A DNA stretch of 64,000 bases from Escherichia phage EC148. Below the pieces are notes generated by a model, which did no database searches, was not told where the DNA came from, and was given only the letters and a program-made list of their open reading frames with translations. The stretch lies in the sequence record NC_106721.1; one strand, given 5' to 3'. Shown piece by piece: positions 4,139 through 34,970 of the stretch; within the stretch, counting starts at the first letter, position 1; the number at the start of each line of letters is the position of its first letter. The position numbers and the translations under genes are program-made.

Positions 4139-4216
4139 TGGTGGCTCCCCGAGGATTCGAACCTACGTACCTTCCGGTTATGAGCCGGGTGCTCATACCA
4201 TATGAGCTTGAGAACC
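4139..4216 (-). tRNA. tRNA, anticodon CAU (Met/Ile2-type)
   Basis: Acceptor with two G-U pairs, D-stem GCTC/GAGC, anticodon stem CCGG/CCGG with loop CTCATAA, weak 3-bp T-stem around TTCGAAT, CCA encoded. Confidence 0.5.
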
Positions 4217-21499: not shown

Positions 21500-21691
21500 C
21501 TACAATTTTAAATAAGCCTATGATATTGCATTTAAATAAAAAATTTGCTTGCTTTTAACGTGAGATGTGTGATACTAGATAATCATTTTATATCGCGTGC
21601 ACGAGTGCGTGATTATACAATTTTTAATAGAGATTGGCAAATAAAATTTTTTGACTCAGATCATGTTACAGAACTTTATAGTAAAATATTG

Positions 21692-21720
21692 TTGACATCC
21701 ACCCTCGAATGAGTTATAAT
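21692..21720 (+). promoter_or_regulatory. consensus sigma70 promoter upstream of nrdD
   Basis: -35 TTGACA (21692-21697), 17-nt spacer, -10 TATAAT (21715-21720). Confidence 0.7.
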
Positions 21721-23624: not shown

Positions 23625-23666
23625 GCTAATCAGCCGGGTTGCTAGTCGACCTGGCTTTTATTTTAT

Positions 23667-23695
23667 TTGCTTTCAGCCAAAAATTTATATATAAT
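23667..23695 (+). promoter_or_regulatory. sigma70-type promoter (plus)
   Basis: -35 TTGCTT / 17 nt / -10 TATAAT, followed by conserved AT-rich leader ending in GAGAGGAG RBS. Confidence 0.6.
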
Positions 23696-23723: not shown

Positions 23724-24104
23724 ATGGAATTAAAGCCCTATATAGTTGAATCTACATGTGGTAGTTTCCATCTGGGTGTAGATGATATTGCTGAGGCTGT
23801 CTTTGCTGCCACAGGTGATTACTCGCATATAGAGGGTGTTGGATACCCTACCATTATTGGCGATTGGGTGGGAACAAATCTAGATGTATCGCCTTATAAC
23901 CCATATTGCTTGTTTGATGAAGACAGAGATGAAGTAAAATGTAATCTTGAATTTGTGTATAATAGAGTGTTAAAAGTATACCAACGTAGCCCCAATGGGT
24001 ACGAAGATATTACTTGGAGTATTAAACAGTATCTTAAAGATGTATACTCTAGTTTTTCTGACGAAGACCTAGAAACAGTTGCAGTGGAGTTTAATAATGA
24101 CTAA
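23724..24104 (+). CDS. hypothetical protein, 126 aa
   Basis: RBS GAGAGGAG; lacks the CxxxCxxC radical-SAM motif expected for an NrdG activase. Confidence 0.5.
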   Translation: MELKPYIVESTCGSFHLGVDDIAEAVFAATGDYSHIEGVGYPTIIGDWVGTNLDVSPYNPYCLFDEDRDEVKCNLEFVYNRVLKVYQRSPNGYEDITWSIKQYLKDVYSSFSDEDLETVAVEFNND

Positions 24105-24303
24105 GAATGTGAAACACCTTAAATATCGCTTAATTTACAACGGACGTATGGAAACAGAAGATCTGGCCCAATTAGCTATTAACTCTAATGAGGTTACAGT
24201 GCGTGCACTGGCAATTGAAAAGTTGCGTGCCTCTTATGAAAATCGTGTTATGGAACTAGAGGAGAAACTTTATGGCATTCTCGAAGCCGATACTACCAGA
24301 TAA
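24097..24303 (+). CDS. hypothetical protein
   Basis: ORF, start set at MTKNV. Confidence 0.4.
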   Translation: MTKNVKHLKYRLIYNGRMETEDLAQLAINSNEVTVRALAIEKLRASYENRVMELEEKLYGILEADTTR

Positions 24304-24493
24304 GGGTTTAAACTCCGCTTTGGAAAATGCATTAATGCAGCAGTGGGAAACTGGCTATAAGGATGGTGTTGAATCCTGCGCTACTATGCTAGAAGTTATT
24401 GCTAATACCTTAATGGAGAAAGGCAATAAAGAATTAGCTGAGCTATTAGACAGTATTGGGCAAAACTTCAGAGAACAGGTGAAAAATGCGTAG
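24272..24493 (+). CDS. hypothetical protein
   Basis: ORF. Confidence 0.4.
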   Translation: MAFSKPILPDKGLNSALENALMQQWETGYKDGVESCATMLEVIANTLMEKGNKELAELLDSIGQNFREQVKNA

Positions 24494-25322
24494 ATTAATT
24501 ATTATTAGTGGTGCGGGTTTGAGTGTTGAAAGTGGTGTACGAGCCTTCCGTACTGATACTGCTAGTGGTAAAGCATTGTGGGATGACTATGATCTAGAAG
24601 AAGTATGTAATATTCATGCCTTTCGTGGTAATTTTTATCATAAAACCCATATGTTTTACAACAAGCGTCGTGAAGAGCTAAAAACTGTTGAACCCAATCT
24701 TGCGCATTTGCGTATTGGTGAATGGTATAAACAATATCCAGGTCAAGTAGTAAACTTGACTACCAACGTTGATGACCTTATTGAGCGTGCTGGCGTTCCA
24801 CATAGTGACATTCTGCATATTCACGGATATTTAAAAGAGGTTGTTGTAGCTGATAGCTACAATAGTAGCAATAAACGGATTATTGATGTAGGATACAATT
24901 CTATTGATCCAGATGATTATAAATGGGTTAAACCTAATGTAATCTTCTTTGGAGAGCATGCTCCTGCATACGCAGAAATGTATAATGTTTTTGACGGTAT
25001 TACCAGTCAAGATATGATCATTGTGGTTGGTTGCTCTAACCAAGTAATTAACTTCTACTGGGAATTATTTCCTGTTCTTAATAGGACTGCTGCGAAATTT
25101 ATGGTAGTTAACTACTATGATAGTGCCCTCGCGGCGGAACCGGGCTATCAAGGTATGACTCGTAGTGAGATGTACCAGCTGGAAGAACGTGGTGTCCCTT
25201 ACTGGAGTAAAGGTGCGGTAGATGCTTTTAGTGATCCTGATTTTATTGCTCGTGTAGAAGCTCATTTAGAGGGTAGACCTTATGTGTCGAGAAGCAAGGG
25301 AAACAGATATGTCCATAGTTAA
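24486..25322 (+). CDS. Sir2-family (sirtuin-like) NAD-binding protein without zinc ribbon
   Basis: GAGLSVESGVRAFR, NVDDLIERAG...HIHG and VIFFGE motifs; no Cys in the usual Zn-binding insert. Confidence 0.7.
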   Translation: MRRLIIISGAGLSVESGVRAFRTDTASGKALWDDYDLEEVCNIHAFRGNFYHKTHMFYNKRREELKTVEPNLAHLRIGEWYKQYPGQVVNLTTNVDDLIERAGVPHSDILHIHGYLKEVVVADSYNSSNKRIIDVGYNSIDPDDYKWVKPNVIFFGEHAPAYAEMYNVFDGITSQDMIIVVGCSNQVINFYWELFPVLNRTAAKFMVVNYYDSALAAEPGYQGMTRSEMYQLEERGVPYWSKGAVDAFSDPDFIARVEAHLEGRPYVSRSKGNRYVHS

Positions 25323-25491
25323 ATCTGTGTATACACACCCCGATGATATATTTGTATGGGCGGATGGTAGTTGGTGCTATCGCTGTGAGCTGTGGGAGAT
25401 GGACTATAAATCCGATGACTATGGTGTTATATATGTTGATACGGTTGAGTATGATACGTTCTTAGAAAGGAACAAAAATGGAAATAAGTAA
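25309..25491 (+). CDS. hypothetical protein
   Basis: ORF, start set at MSIVKS. Confidence 0.4.
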   Translation: MSIVKSVYTHPDDIFVWADGSWCYRCELWEMDYKSDDYGVIYVDTVEYDTFLERNKNGNK

Positions 25492-25984
25492 TACTCCAAT
25501 TATTTTTCTAGATATTGATGGGGTGCTCAATTCGAGCATCTCCCACCATCATGCACCTGATGACGAAAAGATTTTCTTTGGAAGTGATTGGGTTTTCAAA
25601 CCGCTTCTCAAGGCTTTTCAGGACTTTATTCGTCCTTCTCCGATAATGATTGTTGGAGTATCCTCATGGTTCTCTGTCAGGAATGAGATGGAGAACGTTC
25701 AGATTATGACCGGATTAGGTCTTATCGATCGTTTTCTTGGTACAACGGATTTTACTGGGGGTGGATTATCTAGGGGTAATTCTGTTCTTCGCTTCGTTGA
25801 AAAGCATAAGCTCAAACATTGGTGTGTTCTGGATGACGCTGGTGCTATGATGTACCAGTATCCAACGGTTATAGTCAACGGTAGAACTGGAATAAATCTT
25901 CAAGATTTAATGGCTGTTAGCTATATGCTAGAATTTAGTCCAGATCTTGAAATGTGTAAAGCCCTACAACAATTTAAGGTGTAA
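25478..25984 (+). CDS. HAD-like hydrolase (putative phosphatase)
   Basis: Motif I-like IIFLDIDGVLN. Confidence 0.5.
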   Translation: MEISNTPIIFLDIDGVLNSSISHHHAPDDEKIFFGSDWVFKPLLKAFQDFIRPSPIMIVGVSSWFSVRNEMENVQIMTGLGLIDRFLGTTDFTGGGLSRGNSVLRFVEKHKLKHWCVLDDAGAMMYQYPTVIVNGRTGINLQDLMAVSYMLEFSPDLEMCKALQQFKV

Positions 25985-25986
25985 AT

Positions 25987-26415
25987 ATGTTCAATAATGT
26001 ATTCTCTAAAGAAGCTAACCCAATTTTGGTTAACTTTTGGCGTACTCTACCGGCTAGCCTGTATAATGAGGCTATTAACTCCTTGAAAATATGGTGTGAG
26101 AATAACGAAATCTCCTTTGCTTTTAAAGATGATATTGATGAGGCCCCCTGTATTGGTTTAATTGTGCAGGTAGAGGATGGTCTTGAAGAGATTGTGGGCT
26201 GGAAAGAGTTAGACGAAATGGGCTTAGTTTTTGCGTTAAATTATAAGCTGTTTATGCCTGCTAAGCATCGCCTTGTTGTTAACTATAAAACTAGTGAATC
26301 TCCTGGTTTTCAGGTTAATGAACGTTATGGTTGGTCTTACTCACCGGAAGAAGTAAATGAGGGGATTCAGAAACTTCGACGTTTCGGGTATATGATCCCA
26401 GGTTTAACTGCTTAA
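25987..26415 (+). CDS. hypothetical protein, paralogue A of a tandem pair
   Basis: Shares architecture and C-terminal ...GYMIPGL motif with the next ORF. Confidence 0.5.
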   Translation: MFNNVFSKEANPILVNFWRTLPASLYNEAINSLKIWCENNEISFAFKDDIDEAPCIGLIVQVEDGLEEIVGWKELDEMGLVFALNYKLFMPAKHRLVVNYKTSESPGFQVNERYGWSYSPEEVNEGIQKLRRFGYMIPGLTA

Positions 26416-26424
26416 GGAGGCAGA

Positions 26425-26817
26425 ATGGAACAAGTATATTGGCGTCAGATTGATCCTAGTTTGGTGAAACGTGCGGAGAAGCTGCTACAACGTTGGTTGG
26501 GGGTAAGACAAGCCTCCTTCACTTTTCCGGAGCAGCAAATAGATGATCCCTGTGTTGGTGTTTTCCTATCCGGCTACGCGGGGGAATGGGAGTTGGATTG
26601 GAATGAGTTGTCTGCTATGGGTTTAATTGTTGCCCTAAATTTCTCTTTGTTCCACCCACGTGGTTTGGCCATATGTCGTGTGTCGGATGATGGTTGTTCG
26701 CCCCATCTTTTACAGGTGGAAGATGATATTTGGGAGTACACTCCAGATATTCTCAAAGAAGCTAAAGAACAATTAAACCGTGTTGGGATTTATGTTCCAG
26801 GCTTAAATGATGAATGA
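26425..26817 (+). CDS. hypothetical protein, paralogue B of a tandem pair
   Basis: RBS AAGGAGG; ...GIYVPGL C-terminus; MGL(I/V)xALN(F/Y)xLF core shared with the previous ORF. Confidence 0.5.
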   Translation: MEQVYWRQIDPSLVKRAEKLLQRWLGVRQASFTFPEQQIDDPCVGVFLSGYAGEWELDWNELSAMGLIVALNFSLFHPRGLAICRVSDDGCSPHLLQVEDDIWEYTPDILKEAKEQLNRVGIYVPGLNDE

Positions 26818-26908
26818 TTTTTATTAGCTGAACTCTGATTACCGAGTCATTTTGGCTCGGTTTTATCCGTACTCAAGACCAATGATAGCACCATCCGGAA
26901 AATTTTAC

Positions 26909-26937
26909 TTGCAGGATGCCCAAAATCTTGATATAAT
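26909..26937 (+). promoter_or_regulatory. sigma70-type promoter (plus) heading the long leader upstream of the helicase-like gene
   Basis: -35 TTGCAG / 17 nt / -10 TATAAT. Confidence 0.5.
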
Positions 26938-27436
26938 ATTTATATTGAATTGAGAGACATTAGTAAAAATTGATTTTGCTAATTTTTCTTGTTTACAATC
27001 CGCGATACGGAACAGTTAGGCTGCCCCATTAAGGGTTGTTTTAACTGTTACGTGTTAGTTTTTAAACAAATAGTTAATAGAATACTTAGCGATCTGCGTC
27101 CCATAGGAACCCTGGTAAGGCCTCGAAGCAACCTAGTATGAGGTGGTTGTGAAGTGAGATGGGAGGAGTGAAAAACTCCGAGACGTGATTCTGTAAGTTA
27201 TATTGCATCTAGTATGAGCTAGTATATGAAGCATTAGGTGAGCAAATCTGGCTTAGCGGCCATCCTCAAGGATTTGTGCGATATAGCAAAGCAGCAGCGC
27301 AGCGTGAAAGTGGAAGTTGCCACCCCCCTTCAGTATTTGCGATTAATTTGTTGAGAAATTGACAGTAACAGTTGTTCTATTCTTTCTGAATAGTCCTAAA
27401 GAAAACTTATTTTATTTCCAACACAGGAGTATTGTT

Positions 27437-33025: not shown

Positions 33026-33997
33026 ATGACCAATGTAAAAGACTTTATTAAACGTTGCCAAGAAGCATATTATCAAGGTATGTCTTTAATCTCTGATGAA
33101 GAGTATGATTGCCTGGTAAAACGCTTTCCGTTAGAAGAAGAGATCGGACCTAAGGGCGATATTCCACATCTGTATCGTATGTATTCTTTACAGAAAGTTT
33201 ATTATAATCGTGGAGATAAACCTCCGTTTAACCCGTTAGGTCAAGTAGAAACTGATAAGTTAGATGGTTGTGCAATTTCTCTGTTATATATTAATGGCGA
33301 ATTTGTTCAAGCACTAACTCGTGGTAATGGTATTCTAGGGAATGATGTCACAAGCAACGTAAGATTGCTGAATATCCCTAAAAAGATTTCCCAAAAAGTA
33401 CCTACTCAAATCACTGGTGAAGTTCTAATTACAAAAGAAGTAGAAAATAAACGTAACTTTGCCTCTGGTGCTATTAACCTCAAAGATAGTGATGATTTTG
33501 TACAACGTATCGGAGAAGGTGGTTTAATCTTCGTTGCATATGGTATCCAGTGTTCTGCTGAATCTGTAGGTATTACAGAAGCATATTTAAAAGATATGCT
33601 TTGGCTGGAGAATGAGAACTTCTTAACAGTTGTTAATGTGCGTTCCTTCTTTAAATGGATTCCGACGGATGGTAAAGTTGTTCGTATTAATGACAACAAC
33701 AAATTCTTCCGTGAAGGCTGGACTAATAAATTCCCTCGTGGAGCATTCGCTATTAAAGAGGATGAAGAAGGCGAGGTTACAACTCTTACTAAAGTTGAAT
33801 GGCAGGTAGGGGCTTCTGGTAAAGTAACTCCAGTTGGTTATTTCGAACCGGTAATTATTGATGATGCTACAATTGTTAAAGCGACTCTTAATAACGTTGA
33901 TTATATTAACTCTCTTGATCTAGAGATCGGTTGCCAGATTCGAGTGATTCGTGCTGGTGGTGTAATCCCGTGCATAGTAGAGCGAGTATACGAGTAA
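33026..33997 (+). CDS. NAD-dependent DNA ligase, adenylation-domain subunit
   Basis: KxDG active-site motif (TDKLDGCAIS) and LigA-type nucleotidyltransferase/OB region. Confidence 0.8.
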   Translation: MTNVKDFIKRCQEAYYQGMSLISDEEYDCLVKRFPLEEEIGPKGDIPHLYRMYSLQKVYYNRGDKPPFNPLGQVETDKLDGCAISLLYINGEFVQALTRGNGILGNDVTSNVRLLNIPKKISQKVPTQITGEVLITKEVENKRNFASGAINLKDSDDFVQRIGEGGLIFVAYGIQCSAESVGITEAYLKDMLWLENENFLTVVNVRSFFKWIPTDGKVVRINDNNKFFREGWTNKFPRGAFAIKEDEEGEVTTLTKVEWQVGASGKVTPVGYFEPVIIDDATIVKATLNNVDYINSLDLEIGCQIRVIRAGGVIPCIVERVYE

Positions 33998-34196: not shown

Positions 34197-34970
34197 TTGA
34201 TGAAAATCGAAATTCCAACACAATGTCCCTCTTGTGGTTCTAAGCTAGATCTTGTCAACGGACAATTATTTTGTCGGAATAAGTCCAACTGTCCAGCGCA
34301 ATCAAGTAAGTTAATTGAGAACTTCTGTACAAAAATGAAGTTAAAGGGTTTTGGTCCAAAAACTATTGAGAAGCTGGAGCTGACGAAGATTTCAGAACTA
34401 TTTTACCTAACCGAAGAAGATTTGGTTAGAGCCGTGGGTAGCAAGGTTGCCGCTAAGTTAATTAGCGAATTAAATACTAAAGTTCGCGGAGACATTGACT
34501 TTGGTTCAGTTCTCGGTTCTTTAGGAATCCCTCTAATTGGAGAGGTTGCAGCAAAGAAATTATCCCAAAATTGCACTAGCTTCCACGATGTGAAGGCTGA
34601 CGGCAAGGCTGGAGAAAATTATAAAGCCTGGCTAAATTCCCCACAAGGCAAGGATGTTATCGAATTACCGTGGAAATTCTCAACTGGTGCTAAAGCTAAA
34701 ACCGTCGTTACTGATGATTTAGTTGCCCAGCCAAATGGAATCGCGGTATGTATTACCGGATCTTTGCAAGACTTTGCAAATCGAACGGATGCAACAAACT
34801 ATTTAGAAGGTCTAGGATATACGGTTAAGAAATCTGTTACCAAAGACGTCAAATACCTAATCTGTGAGGATGAATCGAAGCGTTCTTCCTCATCTTATAA
34901 GAAAGCCGAAACGAATGGGATAGAAATCCTGTCGATTAAAGAACTATTGGAGAAAAATAATAATGTCTAA
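34197..34970 (+). CDS. NAD-dependent DNA ligase, zinc-finger/HhH/BRCT subunit
   Basis: CPSCGS...C...C zinc finger, HhH-like segment, C-terminal BRCT-like region; separated from the adenylation gene by a promoter-containing spacer. Confidence 0.75.
   Translation: MMKIEIPTQCPSCGSKLDLVNGQLFCRNKSNCPAQSSKLIENFCTKMKLKGFGPKTIEKLELTKISELFYLTEEDLVRAVGSKVAAKLISELNTKVRGDIDFGSVLGSLGIPLIGEVAAKKLSQNCTSFHDVKADGKAGENYKAWLNSPQGKDVIELPWKFSTGAKAKTVVTDDLVAQPNGIAVCITGSLQDFANRTDATNYLEGLGYTVKKSVTKDVKYLICEDESKRSSSSYKKAETNGIEILSIKELLEKNNNV

Follow-up and report, generated by a model that had tools for sequence, protein, structure and literature searches.

The window analysed here, a stretch of 64,000 nucleotides (nt) from Escherichia phage EC148 (NC_106721.1), carries at positions 24486-25322 a gene for a Sir2 protein of 278 amino acids (aa). 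Judged by sequence comparison and a structural model, this protein belongs to the canonical CobB/SIRT5-type (class III) sirtuins and not to the defence-type SIR2 NADases, and it is best read as an active NAD-dependent protein-lysine deacylase, a reading held at somewhat short of an even chance. The gene is an ordinary T5-family Sir2, already annotated in hundreds of T5-like genomes, and the loss of its zinc ligands as well as the sirtuin-HAD neighbourhood are likewise known from annotations and earlier work (PMC5107563; PMC9503650). The sole remaining interest of the feature is thus its biochemical function, and no report of a tested substrate was found in the literature for any phage sirtuin. 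Sirtuin genes are kept in about 1,000 phage genomes of several families, including T5-like, rV5-like, Phapecoctavirus-like, KVP40-like, and jumbo phages. If the substrate were settled as acyl-lysine, phages would rewrite host protein acylation during infection; if it were settled as nucleic acid, a new sirtuin chemistry against tRNA-cleaving defences would be at hand. The gene and the key residues of its product are as follows, the open reading frame (ORF) being taken from the ORF list and its identity from profile and structure searches.

24486-25322, plus strand: Sir2/CobB-like class III sirtuin without zinc ligands; ATG start, 278 aa
Key residues of the N-terminal part and up to the catalytic His: G9-A10-G11-x-S13, F21-R22, C41, Y58-x-x-R61, T93-N94-V95-D96, H113-G114
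Further key residues: F154-F155-G-E157, G182-C183-S184, V187-I188-N189-F190, N209

The first-pass annotation had described a phage-encoded Sir2-like protein with the NAD-binding signatures of sirtuins, and this description is borne out. All quoted motifs are present in the ORF translation, with GAGLSVESGVRAFR at residues 9-22, TTNVDDLIERAG...HIHG at residues 92-114, and KPNVIFFGE at residues 149-157. The protein matches the Pfam SIR2 family (PF02146) over profile positions 1-178 of 180 with E=8.2e-25 and 88.2 bits (gathering cutoff 24), which is well beyond chance; PHROG 2162 ('Sir2') is matched with E=8e-122, and of the PDB entries E. coli CobB comes closest in sequence (1s5p, E=2e-17). The family hallmarks, i.e. 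GAGxS (G9-A10-G11-L-S13), FR, the catalytic Asn/Asp, and His-Gly, are all found, with Thr93 replacing the Gln of TQNID, and the two-domain sirtuin fold is predicted as well. F57-Y58-N-K-R61-R62 lines up with CobB FYNARR and so contains the Tyr-x-x-Arg pair of class III sirtuins, which binds acidic acyl groups.

Structure prediction, which had been proposed as a check, yielded a confident sirtuin fold with CobB as its nearest relative. The AlphaFold2 model reached a predicted local distance difference test score (pLDDT) of 89 and a predicted template modelling score (pTM) of 0.88, and a Foldseek comparison with the PDB placed E. coli CobB first (E~1e-17, template modelling score (TM) 0.85), followed at lower ranks by Sir2Af1, Sir2Tm, and SIRT5. 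The protein is not a CobB orthologue, since its bit scores stay far under the cutoffs of the NCBIfam CobB models NF040867 (90.4 vs 320, equivalog), NF001753 (100.7 vs 243, subfamily), and NF001755 (77.4 vs 318, equivalog). Membership in the defence SIR2 NADases finds no backing in model matches or in the nearest structures: the PADLOC defence-system models gave no match to the window Sir2, and no sensor or partner of the SLOG, HerA, pAgo, STAND, or KomAB kind is fused or adjacent to this single-domain protein of 278 aa, whose neighbours according to Pfam and the ORF list are small ORFs, a HAD protein, and DUF7415 proteins. Assignment to SirTM is not indicated either, as neither an operonic or fused macrodomain partner nor a nearest similarity to that group was found.

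Conservation was assessed in a phage-clade alignment of 121 sequences sharing 50-97% identity. Invariant throughout are GAG, S13, F21, R22, Y58, R61, R62, N94, V95, and D96, as well as H113, G114, F154, F155, E157, S184, and N209. A careful alignment had been suggested as a means of exposing a loss of the catalytic His or Asn; H113 and N94 are invariant, and therefore no such loss has taken place. From the invariance of catalytic and NAD-binding residues across the clade it follows that the enzyme is active and under purifying selection. Where CobB has been engineered to alter its acyl-chain selectivity, the aligned residues are kept or conservatively replaced (A76 corresponds to C41, Y92 to Y58, I131 to V95, and V187 to V152); this mapping derives from alignments with wild-type and variant CobB sequences and from PDB entry titles, the lining of the acyl pocket by these residues being an assumption from the titles alone, and all statements on the pocket refer to aligned sequence and not to model geometry. 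The isoelectric point (pI) is acidic in all 120 clade members (4.6-6.05), and the C-terminal tail varies in length among T5-like phages, giving proteins of 267-278 aa. An identical protein (100%) is encoded by E. coli phage NG_A1, and homologues occur in 1,006 phage records.

A second statement of the first-pass annotation concerned zinc: the Zn-binding insert was said to be free of cysteines and the zinc-ribbon module to be lacking. The first part is correct, for the protein has two cysteines only, C41 and C183, and in the alignments none lies in residues 114-149, where CobB has four, so that a four-Cys structural zinc site is absent. The second part goes too far. The ligands are gone, but the module itself is kept: the segment between HG and KPNV comprises 35 residues vs 36 in CobB, and AlphaFold2 predicts strands at residues 114-122, 131-134, and 147-152 with block-mean pLDDT values of 90-97. 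Therefore, the small-domain beta-sheet is predicted to persist with its ligands alone lost, and, on the model, 'zinc-less' and not 'module-less' is the correct term. In residues 114-149 of the 121 phage sequences no alignment column consists mostly of Cys (the highest count is 51/121, at position 148); no alternative metal site was found there either, with no His and no conserved acidic cluster, and only D134, G136, and Y137 are well conserved in this segment.

Zinc loss as a rare or phage-specific trait was considered and is ruled out by cellular relatives and by a phage precedent. Among the best 80 cellular matches (30-39% identity) from 185,579 species-representative genomes, 57 have at most two Cys in the zinc module and 19 have none; the four-Cys site is thus not universal in the sirtuin family. 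These low-Cys cellular sirtuins (loci L079-L112) stem mostly from Bacteroidota, namely Flavobacterium, Chryseobacterium, and Bacteroidales, and retain TQN(I/V)D, GTS, and VYPA. The phage precedent is the KVP40-type Sir2/CobB, described in 2016 as having no zinc site in a study that names T5, too, among the phages with this gene (PMC5107563). In the review on bacterial acylation that was consulted, no mention was seen of a loss of the zinc cysteines in cellular CobB-like sirtuins. Zinc loss is therefore a common, tolerated variation in CobB-like sirtuins without a tie to NAD-depleting defence SIR2 enzymes, and the connection to such enzymes that had been drawn from it does not hold, the trait being common in cellular relatives and the fold being nearest to deacylases.

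The sirtuin appears, from sequence comparisons, to be a member of a phage-specific clade. Compared with the deacylase consensus, the 121 sequences show invariant changes from TQN(I/V)D to TTNVD (Thr93), from GTS to GCS (Cys183), and from VYPA to VINF (Phe190 for the usual Pro), together with Cys41 at the position of CobB Ala76. Thr93 and zinc loss tend to co-occur: among the top 150 cluster representatives from a library of 1.8 billion proteins, 33 combine Thr with fewer than three Cys and 78 combine Gln with at least three. The best cellular match in the 185,579 species genomes is of the ordinary zinc-bearing CobB type and shares 38-39% identity; no clade member (at least 48% identity) was found in these genomes, and the clade therefore appears to be confined to phages. 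Campylobacterota metagenome-assembled genomes supply the closest cellular sequences; several of these sequences show a VIN/VID-type motif instead of VYPA but keep the four Cys and the Gln.

On the favoured reading as a deacylase, the reaction would follow that of its homologues. NAD+ would be bound in the Rossmann domain by GAGxS, F21/R22, N94, and D96; the oxygen nucleophile of the substrate would attack C1' of the nicotinamide ribose, nicotinamide would leave, and His113 would activate the ribose 2'/3'-OH, by which the adduct would be resolved. The likeliest substrate would be acylated lysine on host or phage proteins, carrying acetyl or, given Y58-x-x-R61, succinyl or malonyl groups. Nicotinamide and O-acyl-ADP-ribose would be released, and protein acylation would be reset during infection. 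The small domain would keep its beta-sheet and hold together with no zinc, which is also the case for many CobB-like sirtuins of bacteria. The gene lies in an eight-gene early block in the nucleotide-metabolism/replication gene region of a T5-like phage.

Several lines of evidence favour this reading. The closest homologues, by sequence as well as by modelled structure, are deacylases; the residues that deacylation requires do not vary among clade members; the YxxR pair and the residues at the engineered CobB positions, retained or conservatively replaced, point the same way; and the intact hydrophobic FFGE loop would fit a slender lysine-type substrate. The acidic pI of the clade is weak evidence against direct RNA binding. 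Homologues of Rnl1, cREC, and polynucleotide kinase were found neither in the window nor in nt 1-81,000 of Tequintavirus PP407513, the last 27 kb of which lay outside the search, and RNA ligase, cREC, or kinase annotations are absent from PP407513; this lack in T5-like genomes favours deacylation over RNA repair. Four points weigh on the other side. The literature on phage-clade sirtuins yielded annotations and in-silico work only, with no biochemical or genetic data; the invariant TTNVD, GCS, and VINF (the usual Pro being lost) depart from the deacylase consensus and may signal a changed substrate; rV5-like orthologues lie near RNA-repair genes and the HAD protein of T5-like phages belongs to an RNA-repair-associated family, which points to nucleic-acid end processing; and, with 90 vs 320 bits on the CobB equivalog model, the protein stands apart from CobB orthologues. 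Because of this balance and the lack of experiments on phage sirtuins in the literature, deacylation is preferred only tentatively.

The window covers early-region DNA of a T5-like phage (Tequintavirus); identity of the region reaches 99% with Escherichia phage T5_ev212 and 95-97% with many genomes of Tequintavirus. A tRNA cluster and genes for thymidylate synthase, DHFR, NrdAB, PhoH, and NrdD are followed by the Sir2 block, beyond which, according to the annotation of a close relative, an origin-binding protein, a split NAD-dependent DNA ligase, a helicase, a primase, and a polymerase are encoded. Apart from Sir2 itself, the block comprises the following features.

23632-23656, plus strand: terminator-like hairpin after nrdD, with a 10-bp stem including 6 G-C pairs and followed by TTTTATTTTAT; upstream block boundary
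23667-23695, plus strand: putative sigma-70-type early promoter, identified by eye (TTGCTT, 17-nt spacer, TATAAT at 23690-23695)
23724-24104, plus strand: 126-aa ORF, first of the block; PHROG 11748 (E=1e-73), no Pfam family above threshold
24079-24303, plus strand: 74-aa ORF; PHROG 5236 (E=2e-45), start 18 nt later in relatives
24272-24493, plus strand: 73-aa ORF; PHROG 5827 (E=1e-30), 3' end overlapping the Sir2 start by 8 nt
25282-25491, plus strand: ORF of at most 69 aa; PHROG 5116 (E=9e-30), overlapping the Sir2 3' end and the HAD 5' end
25478-25984, plus strand: HAD_SAK_2 phosphatase ('Swiss Army Knife RNA repair' HAD), 168 aa; PF18143 (E=4e-20, positions 1-138 of 139)
25987-26415, plus strand: DUF7415 protein A, 142 aa; PF24187 (E=2.6e-35, two stretches), PHROG 2502, pI 4.7
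26425-26817, plus strand: DUF7415 protein B, 130 aa, paralogue of A; PF24187 (E=5e-31), pI 4.5
26841-26861 (to 26866 with TTTAT), plus strand: weak terminator-like hairpin ACCGAGTC-ATTTT-GGCTCGGT, identified by eye; block end

Eight packed ORFs, several of them overlapping, span positions 23724-26817 and look like one transcription unit, as judged by eye from the sequence. The putative promoter is followed by a ribosome-binding site (GAGAGGAGAA) and the ATG at 23724; it is missing from the scanner list because its -35 element (3/6) falls under the threshold, and the hairpin at the block end is missing because only 4 of the 8 bases in its tail are T. The ORF at 24079-24303 is conserved in Tequintavirus and Epseptimavirus. 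The 69-aa ORF is conserved from about residue 15 and occurs in most Demerecviridae loci, including Sugarlandvirus, being absent from a few; this ORF and the three small upstream ORFs are members of the block that the first-pass annotation did not include.

That annotation had placed a HAD-like hydrolase and two tandem paralogues after Sir2 and surmised a functional group, which agrees with the family matches listed above (PF18143 for the former, PF24187 for both of the latter) and with the finding that the downstream genes form a conserved block with Sir2 in Demerecviridae. The sirtuin probably works together with the HAD phosphatase and with both of the acidic DUF7415 proteins. The HAD_SAK_2 gene starts 156 nt past the Sir2 stop in the same block, and its DxD nucleophile motif (FLDIDGV) is intact; a PDB sequence search with its product returned no solved relative at E<=1. 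PHROG 18062, labelled 'Sir2 (NAD-dependent deacetylase)', corresponds in fact to the C-terminal 92 aa of HAD_SAK_2 (residues 77-168, E=3e-57). Because this label sits on the HAD protein, many T5-like GenBank records show two 'Sir2' genes, a propagated mis-annotation. In DT57C (NC_027356) and SHSML-45 (NC_031022) the HAD is partial, with residues 128-168 or 64-168 alone matching; its apparent truncation in some T5-like phages suggests that it is dispensable.

DUF7415 protein A contains an internal repeat of a unit of about 53 aa and shares 32% identity with protein B (E~1e-17). A PDB sequence search gave no match for DUF7415, and a confident AlphaFold2 model of protein B gave no significant fold match in the PDB. 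The public names 'tail protein', 'tail tube protein', 'phage exonuclease', and 'RNA-binding protein' were considered and are unsupported, the proteins being acidic and having no fold match. The database labels near Sir2 are thus in need of correction, with HAD named 'Sir2' and DUF7415 named 'tail tube protein'. The C-terminal half of protein B (26590-26800) gave weak tblastn matches (E~1e-4, 33% identity across some 70 aa) in T4-like Klebsiella phages, where the matching small ORFs are unannotated and adjoin the anaerobic ribonucleotide reductase genes nrdD/nrdG; the Sir2 block of the window likewise lies after nrdD.

Tequintavirus and Epseptimavirus share a fixed arrangement: nrdD is followed by two or three small ORFs and then by Sir2, after which come, as a rule, one or two further small ORFs and, in all cases, HAD, DUF7415 A, and DUF7415 B. 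Sugarlandvirus keeps Sir2, a small ORF, and both DUF7415 genes without a HAD gene in the block, and for this reason DUF7415 is the more constant partner of Sir2 within Demerecviridae. The Vequintavirinae (rV5, Mydovirus) encode an orthologue with 57-62% identity near a same-strand run of Rnl1, cREC, kinase, Sir2, and DNA ligase genes, and in Mydovirus directly within it. At 16 loci of Vequintavirinae type, a label identified for two of them (L003 and L004) and extended to the others from shared gene content, the Sir2 orthologue has an Rnl1 homologue in its vicinity, and cREC and kinase homologues are present at most of these loci too. A Pfam search of the rV5 locus returned RNA_lig_T4_1 at E=6e-15 and cREC_REC, described as a 'cyclic-phosphate processing receiver domain', at E=5e-15; a P-loop kinase of the AAA_33 family and a calcineurin-like phosphoesterase (Metallophos) were matched as well. 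NAD salvage genes for NAMPT and PRPP synthetase were noticed in Klebsiella phage KPP-1 (L004 1-1130) and matching Mydovirus loci; they precede the operon of Rnl1, cREC, kinase, Sir2, and DNA ligase by about 5-6 kb. In Justusliebigvirus-type loci, homology searches found no RNA-repair, HAD, or DUF7415 partners within 5-8 kb of Sir2, and the same is presumed for Phapecoctavirus-type loci. The KVP40-like locus of Vibrio phage nt-1 (L007) contains no homologue of the query genes; a MazG-like pyrophosphatase and a metallo-phosphoesterase are annotated in the vicinity.

These contexts bear on the main alternative, which is held less likely than deacylation, namely RNA repair of the Tpt1/KptA kind (Iyer, Burroughs, Anantharaman, and Aravind, 2022). 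The sirtuin would move ADP-ribose from NAD+ to the RNA 2'-phosphate left after healing of the 2',3'-cyclic-phosphate ends that are made by host anticodon nucleases, and HAD_SAK_2 would process RNA-end phosphates or dephosphorylate the ADP-ribose-phosphate by-product. Exactly such a neighbourhood, a sirtuin with a SAK-type HAD in the T5-like phage SP15, is described in section 3.7.3 of that work, where KptA/Tpt1-like removal of the RNA 2'-phosphate is predicted (PMC9503650); its gene contexts were reproduced independently here. RNA end-processing genes adjoin the sirtuin in two independent settings, via Rnl1, cREC_REC, and kinase in rV5-like phages and via HAD_SAK_2 (E=4e-20) in T5-like phages, and phage tRNA clusters lie nearby. 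The two-step chemistry of sirtuins is, moreover, formally analogous to that of Tpt1 (PMC11417386), and the invariant changes at T93, C183, and VINF would fit a substrate shift. Against this, action on RNA has not been demonstrated for any sirtuin, and a complete heal-and-seal pathway with RNA ligase and kinase in the same genome is not present: with no RNA ligase, cREC, or RNA kinase found in the T5-like genomes within the scope given above, the pathway would be incomplete there. The aligned residues of the hydrophobic acyl-lysine tunnel and the class III YxxR pair appear to be retained, the sirtuin and its DUF7415 partners are acidic, the Sugarlandvirus block combines Sir2 and DUF7415 without HAD, and RNA-repair partners are missing near Sir2 in the Justusliebigvirus-type loci (in the Phapecoctavirus-type loci by extension).

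In its most explicit form, the proposal is that a clade marked by Thr93, Cys41, Cys183, VINF, and the lack of zinc has come to use a nucleic-acid phosphate in place of acyl-lysine as its acceptor and acts as a Tpt1 analogue, clearing RNA 2'-phosphates in the repair of tRNAs that host anticodon nucleases have cut, with HAD and possibly DUF7415 as accessory factors. This is less likely than not; if true, no sirtuin would have been shown to work on RNA before. The idea goes back to the in-silico prediction of 2022.

Considerably less probable is the idea put forward in the first-pass annotation, that a phage copy manipulates host NAD+ or counters a defence. Acting as a NADase or transferring ADP-ribosyl groups to small molecules, it would deplete or divert NAD+ of the host or disturb NAD-derived immune signalling. 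The catalytic N and H residues are common to SIR2 NADases, and zinc ligands are lacking, but in sequence and structure the protein is much nearer to deacylases than to any defence NADase, and the co-substrate elements (FGE loop, YxxR), which a plain NADase would not need, are invariant. NAMPT and PRPP synthetase genes close to the sirtuin in Mydovirus, and the reported ability of T5-like phages to rebuild NAD+ via the NARP3 pathway (PMC13464706), would suit a role in NAD+ metabolism. The phage also uses NAD+ for its own split DNA ligase, a circumstance that cuts both ways, as NAD+ depletion would hurt a phage whose ligase needs it. The ORF list and Pfam reveal no sensor or partner from known NADase systems, either fused to the protein or next to it. 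Nothing specific speaks for a plain NADase or for a role in counter-defence.

That the protein is a degenerate, non-catalytic remnant, its fold being kept for binding only or being lost, is very improbable: the lost zinc ligands and the variable tail could be taken that way, but the catalytic and NAD-binding residues are invariant in 121 sequences down to 50% identity and in several phage families, the gene is retained in about 1,000 phage records, and the fold is predicted confidently. The probability beyond the readings listed here falls to substrates that nobody has yet considered.

Some further features of the window were recorded. Back-to-back strong sigma-70 promoters occupy 21612-21720, one with a 12/12 consensus match before nrdD (21692-21720, plus strand) and one with an 11/12 match facing the phoH-like gene (21640-21612, minus strand). 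The Sir2 block is separated from the gene for the origin-binding protein by about 500 nt (26867-27358) that contain no convincing gene, relatives having only tiny ORFs annotated there; an Rfam scan of the window found tRNAs only and no match in this gap. The following 955-aa ORF is listed from a TTG at 27359, and the start in relatives lies about 80 nt later. The Rfam tRNA model adds two tRNA-like genes, at 4142-4216 and 8424-8495 (both minus strand; 40.3 and 35.5 bits), to the 12 in the ARAGORN list, giving 14 in total. The NAD-dependent DNA ligase is split into 33026-33997 and 34197-34970, with adenylation and OB domains in one part and HhH and BRCT domains in the other; with it, the early region encodes another NAD+-consuming enzyme besides Sir2.

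Among known systems, the type 3 system that Iyer et al. (2022) assigned to 'Escherichia phage SP15' is the same system as that in the window, with the same neighbourhood of a sirtuin and a SAK-type HAD (PMC9503650). SP15 is a T5-like phage with near-identical DUF7415 genes (96% identity). In the relevant part of that paper, zinc loss, the two DUF7415 genes, and the small ORFs are not mentioned, and the function is proposed by in-silico prediction. The Sir2/CobB proteins of the KVP40-like Vibrio phages phiSt2, phiGrn1, and nt-1 (Skliros et al., 2016; PMC5107563), studied by modelling and transcript profiling only, are 36-41% identical to the window protein and resemble it in keeping the catalytic His and lacking the zinc site. 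They differ in belonging to Straboviridae, in having other neighbours, and in retaining Pro (I-N-P), whereas the T5/rV5 clade has I-N-F.

The defence SIR2 NADases (ThsA, DSR1/2, SIR2-HerA, KomC, Avs5, and SPARSA) share with the window protein a distant superfamily relationship, the absence of a zinc site, an Asn/His catalytic pair, and the consumption of NAD+; in contrast to them, the window protein has no PADLOC match, no sensor domain, and no partner ATPase, and keeps the elements for a deacylase peptide substrate. Tpt1/KptA, a possible functional analogue, is alike in its NAD+-dependent two-step ADP-ribosyl transfer and in that Sir2 orthologues occur in an RNA ligase/end-healing context. 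It is unlike in having the fold of the ART superfamily vs the sirtuin Rossmann fold, as PMC9503650 describes, and in that no ligase partner was found in T5-like phages (window; PP407513 nt 1-81,000).

The closest comparison is that with E. coli CobB (PDB 1S5P, 6RXJ) and human SIRT5. The phage protein is set apart from them by an identity of only about 24%, by scores far under the NCBIfam CobB equivalog cutoffs, by the absence of zinc cysteines, by the replacements of TQNID by TTNVD, GTS by GCS, VYPA by VINF, and A76 by Cys41, and by an extra C-terminal segment in T5-like members (residues ~210-221 and 264-278). It shares with them the Pfam family and the fold (Foldseek TM 0.85 to CobB), GAGxS, FR, N, D, the catalytic HG, the FGE loop, and the Y-x-x-R pair, as well as a small domain of similar length and beta-topology.

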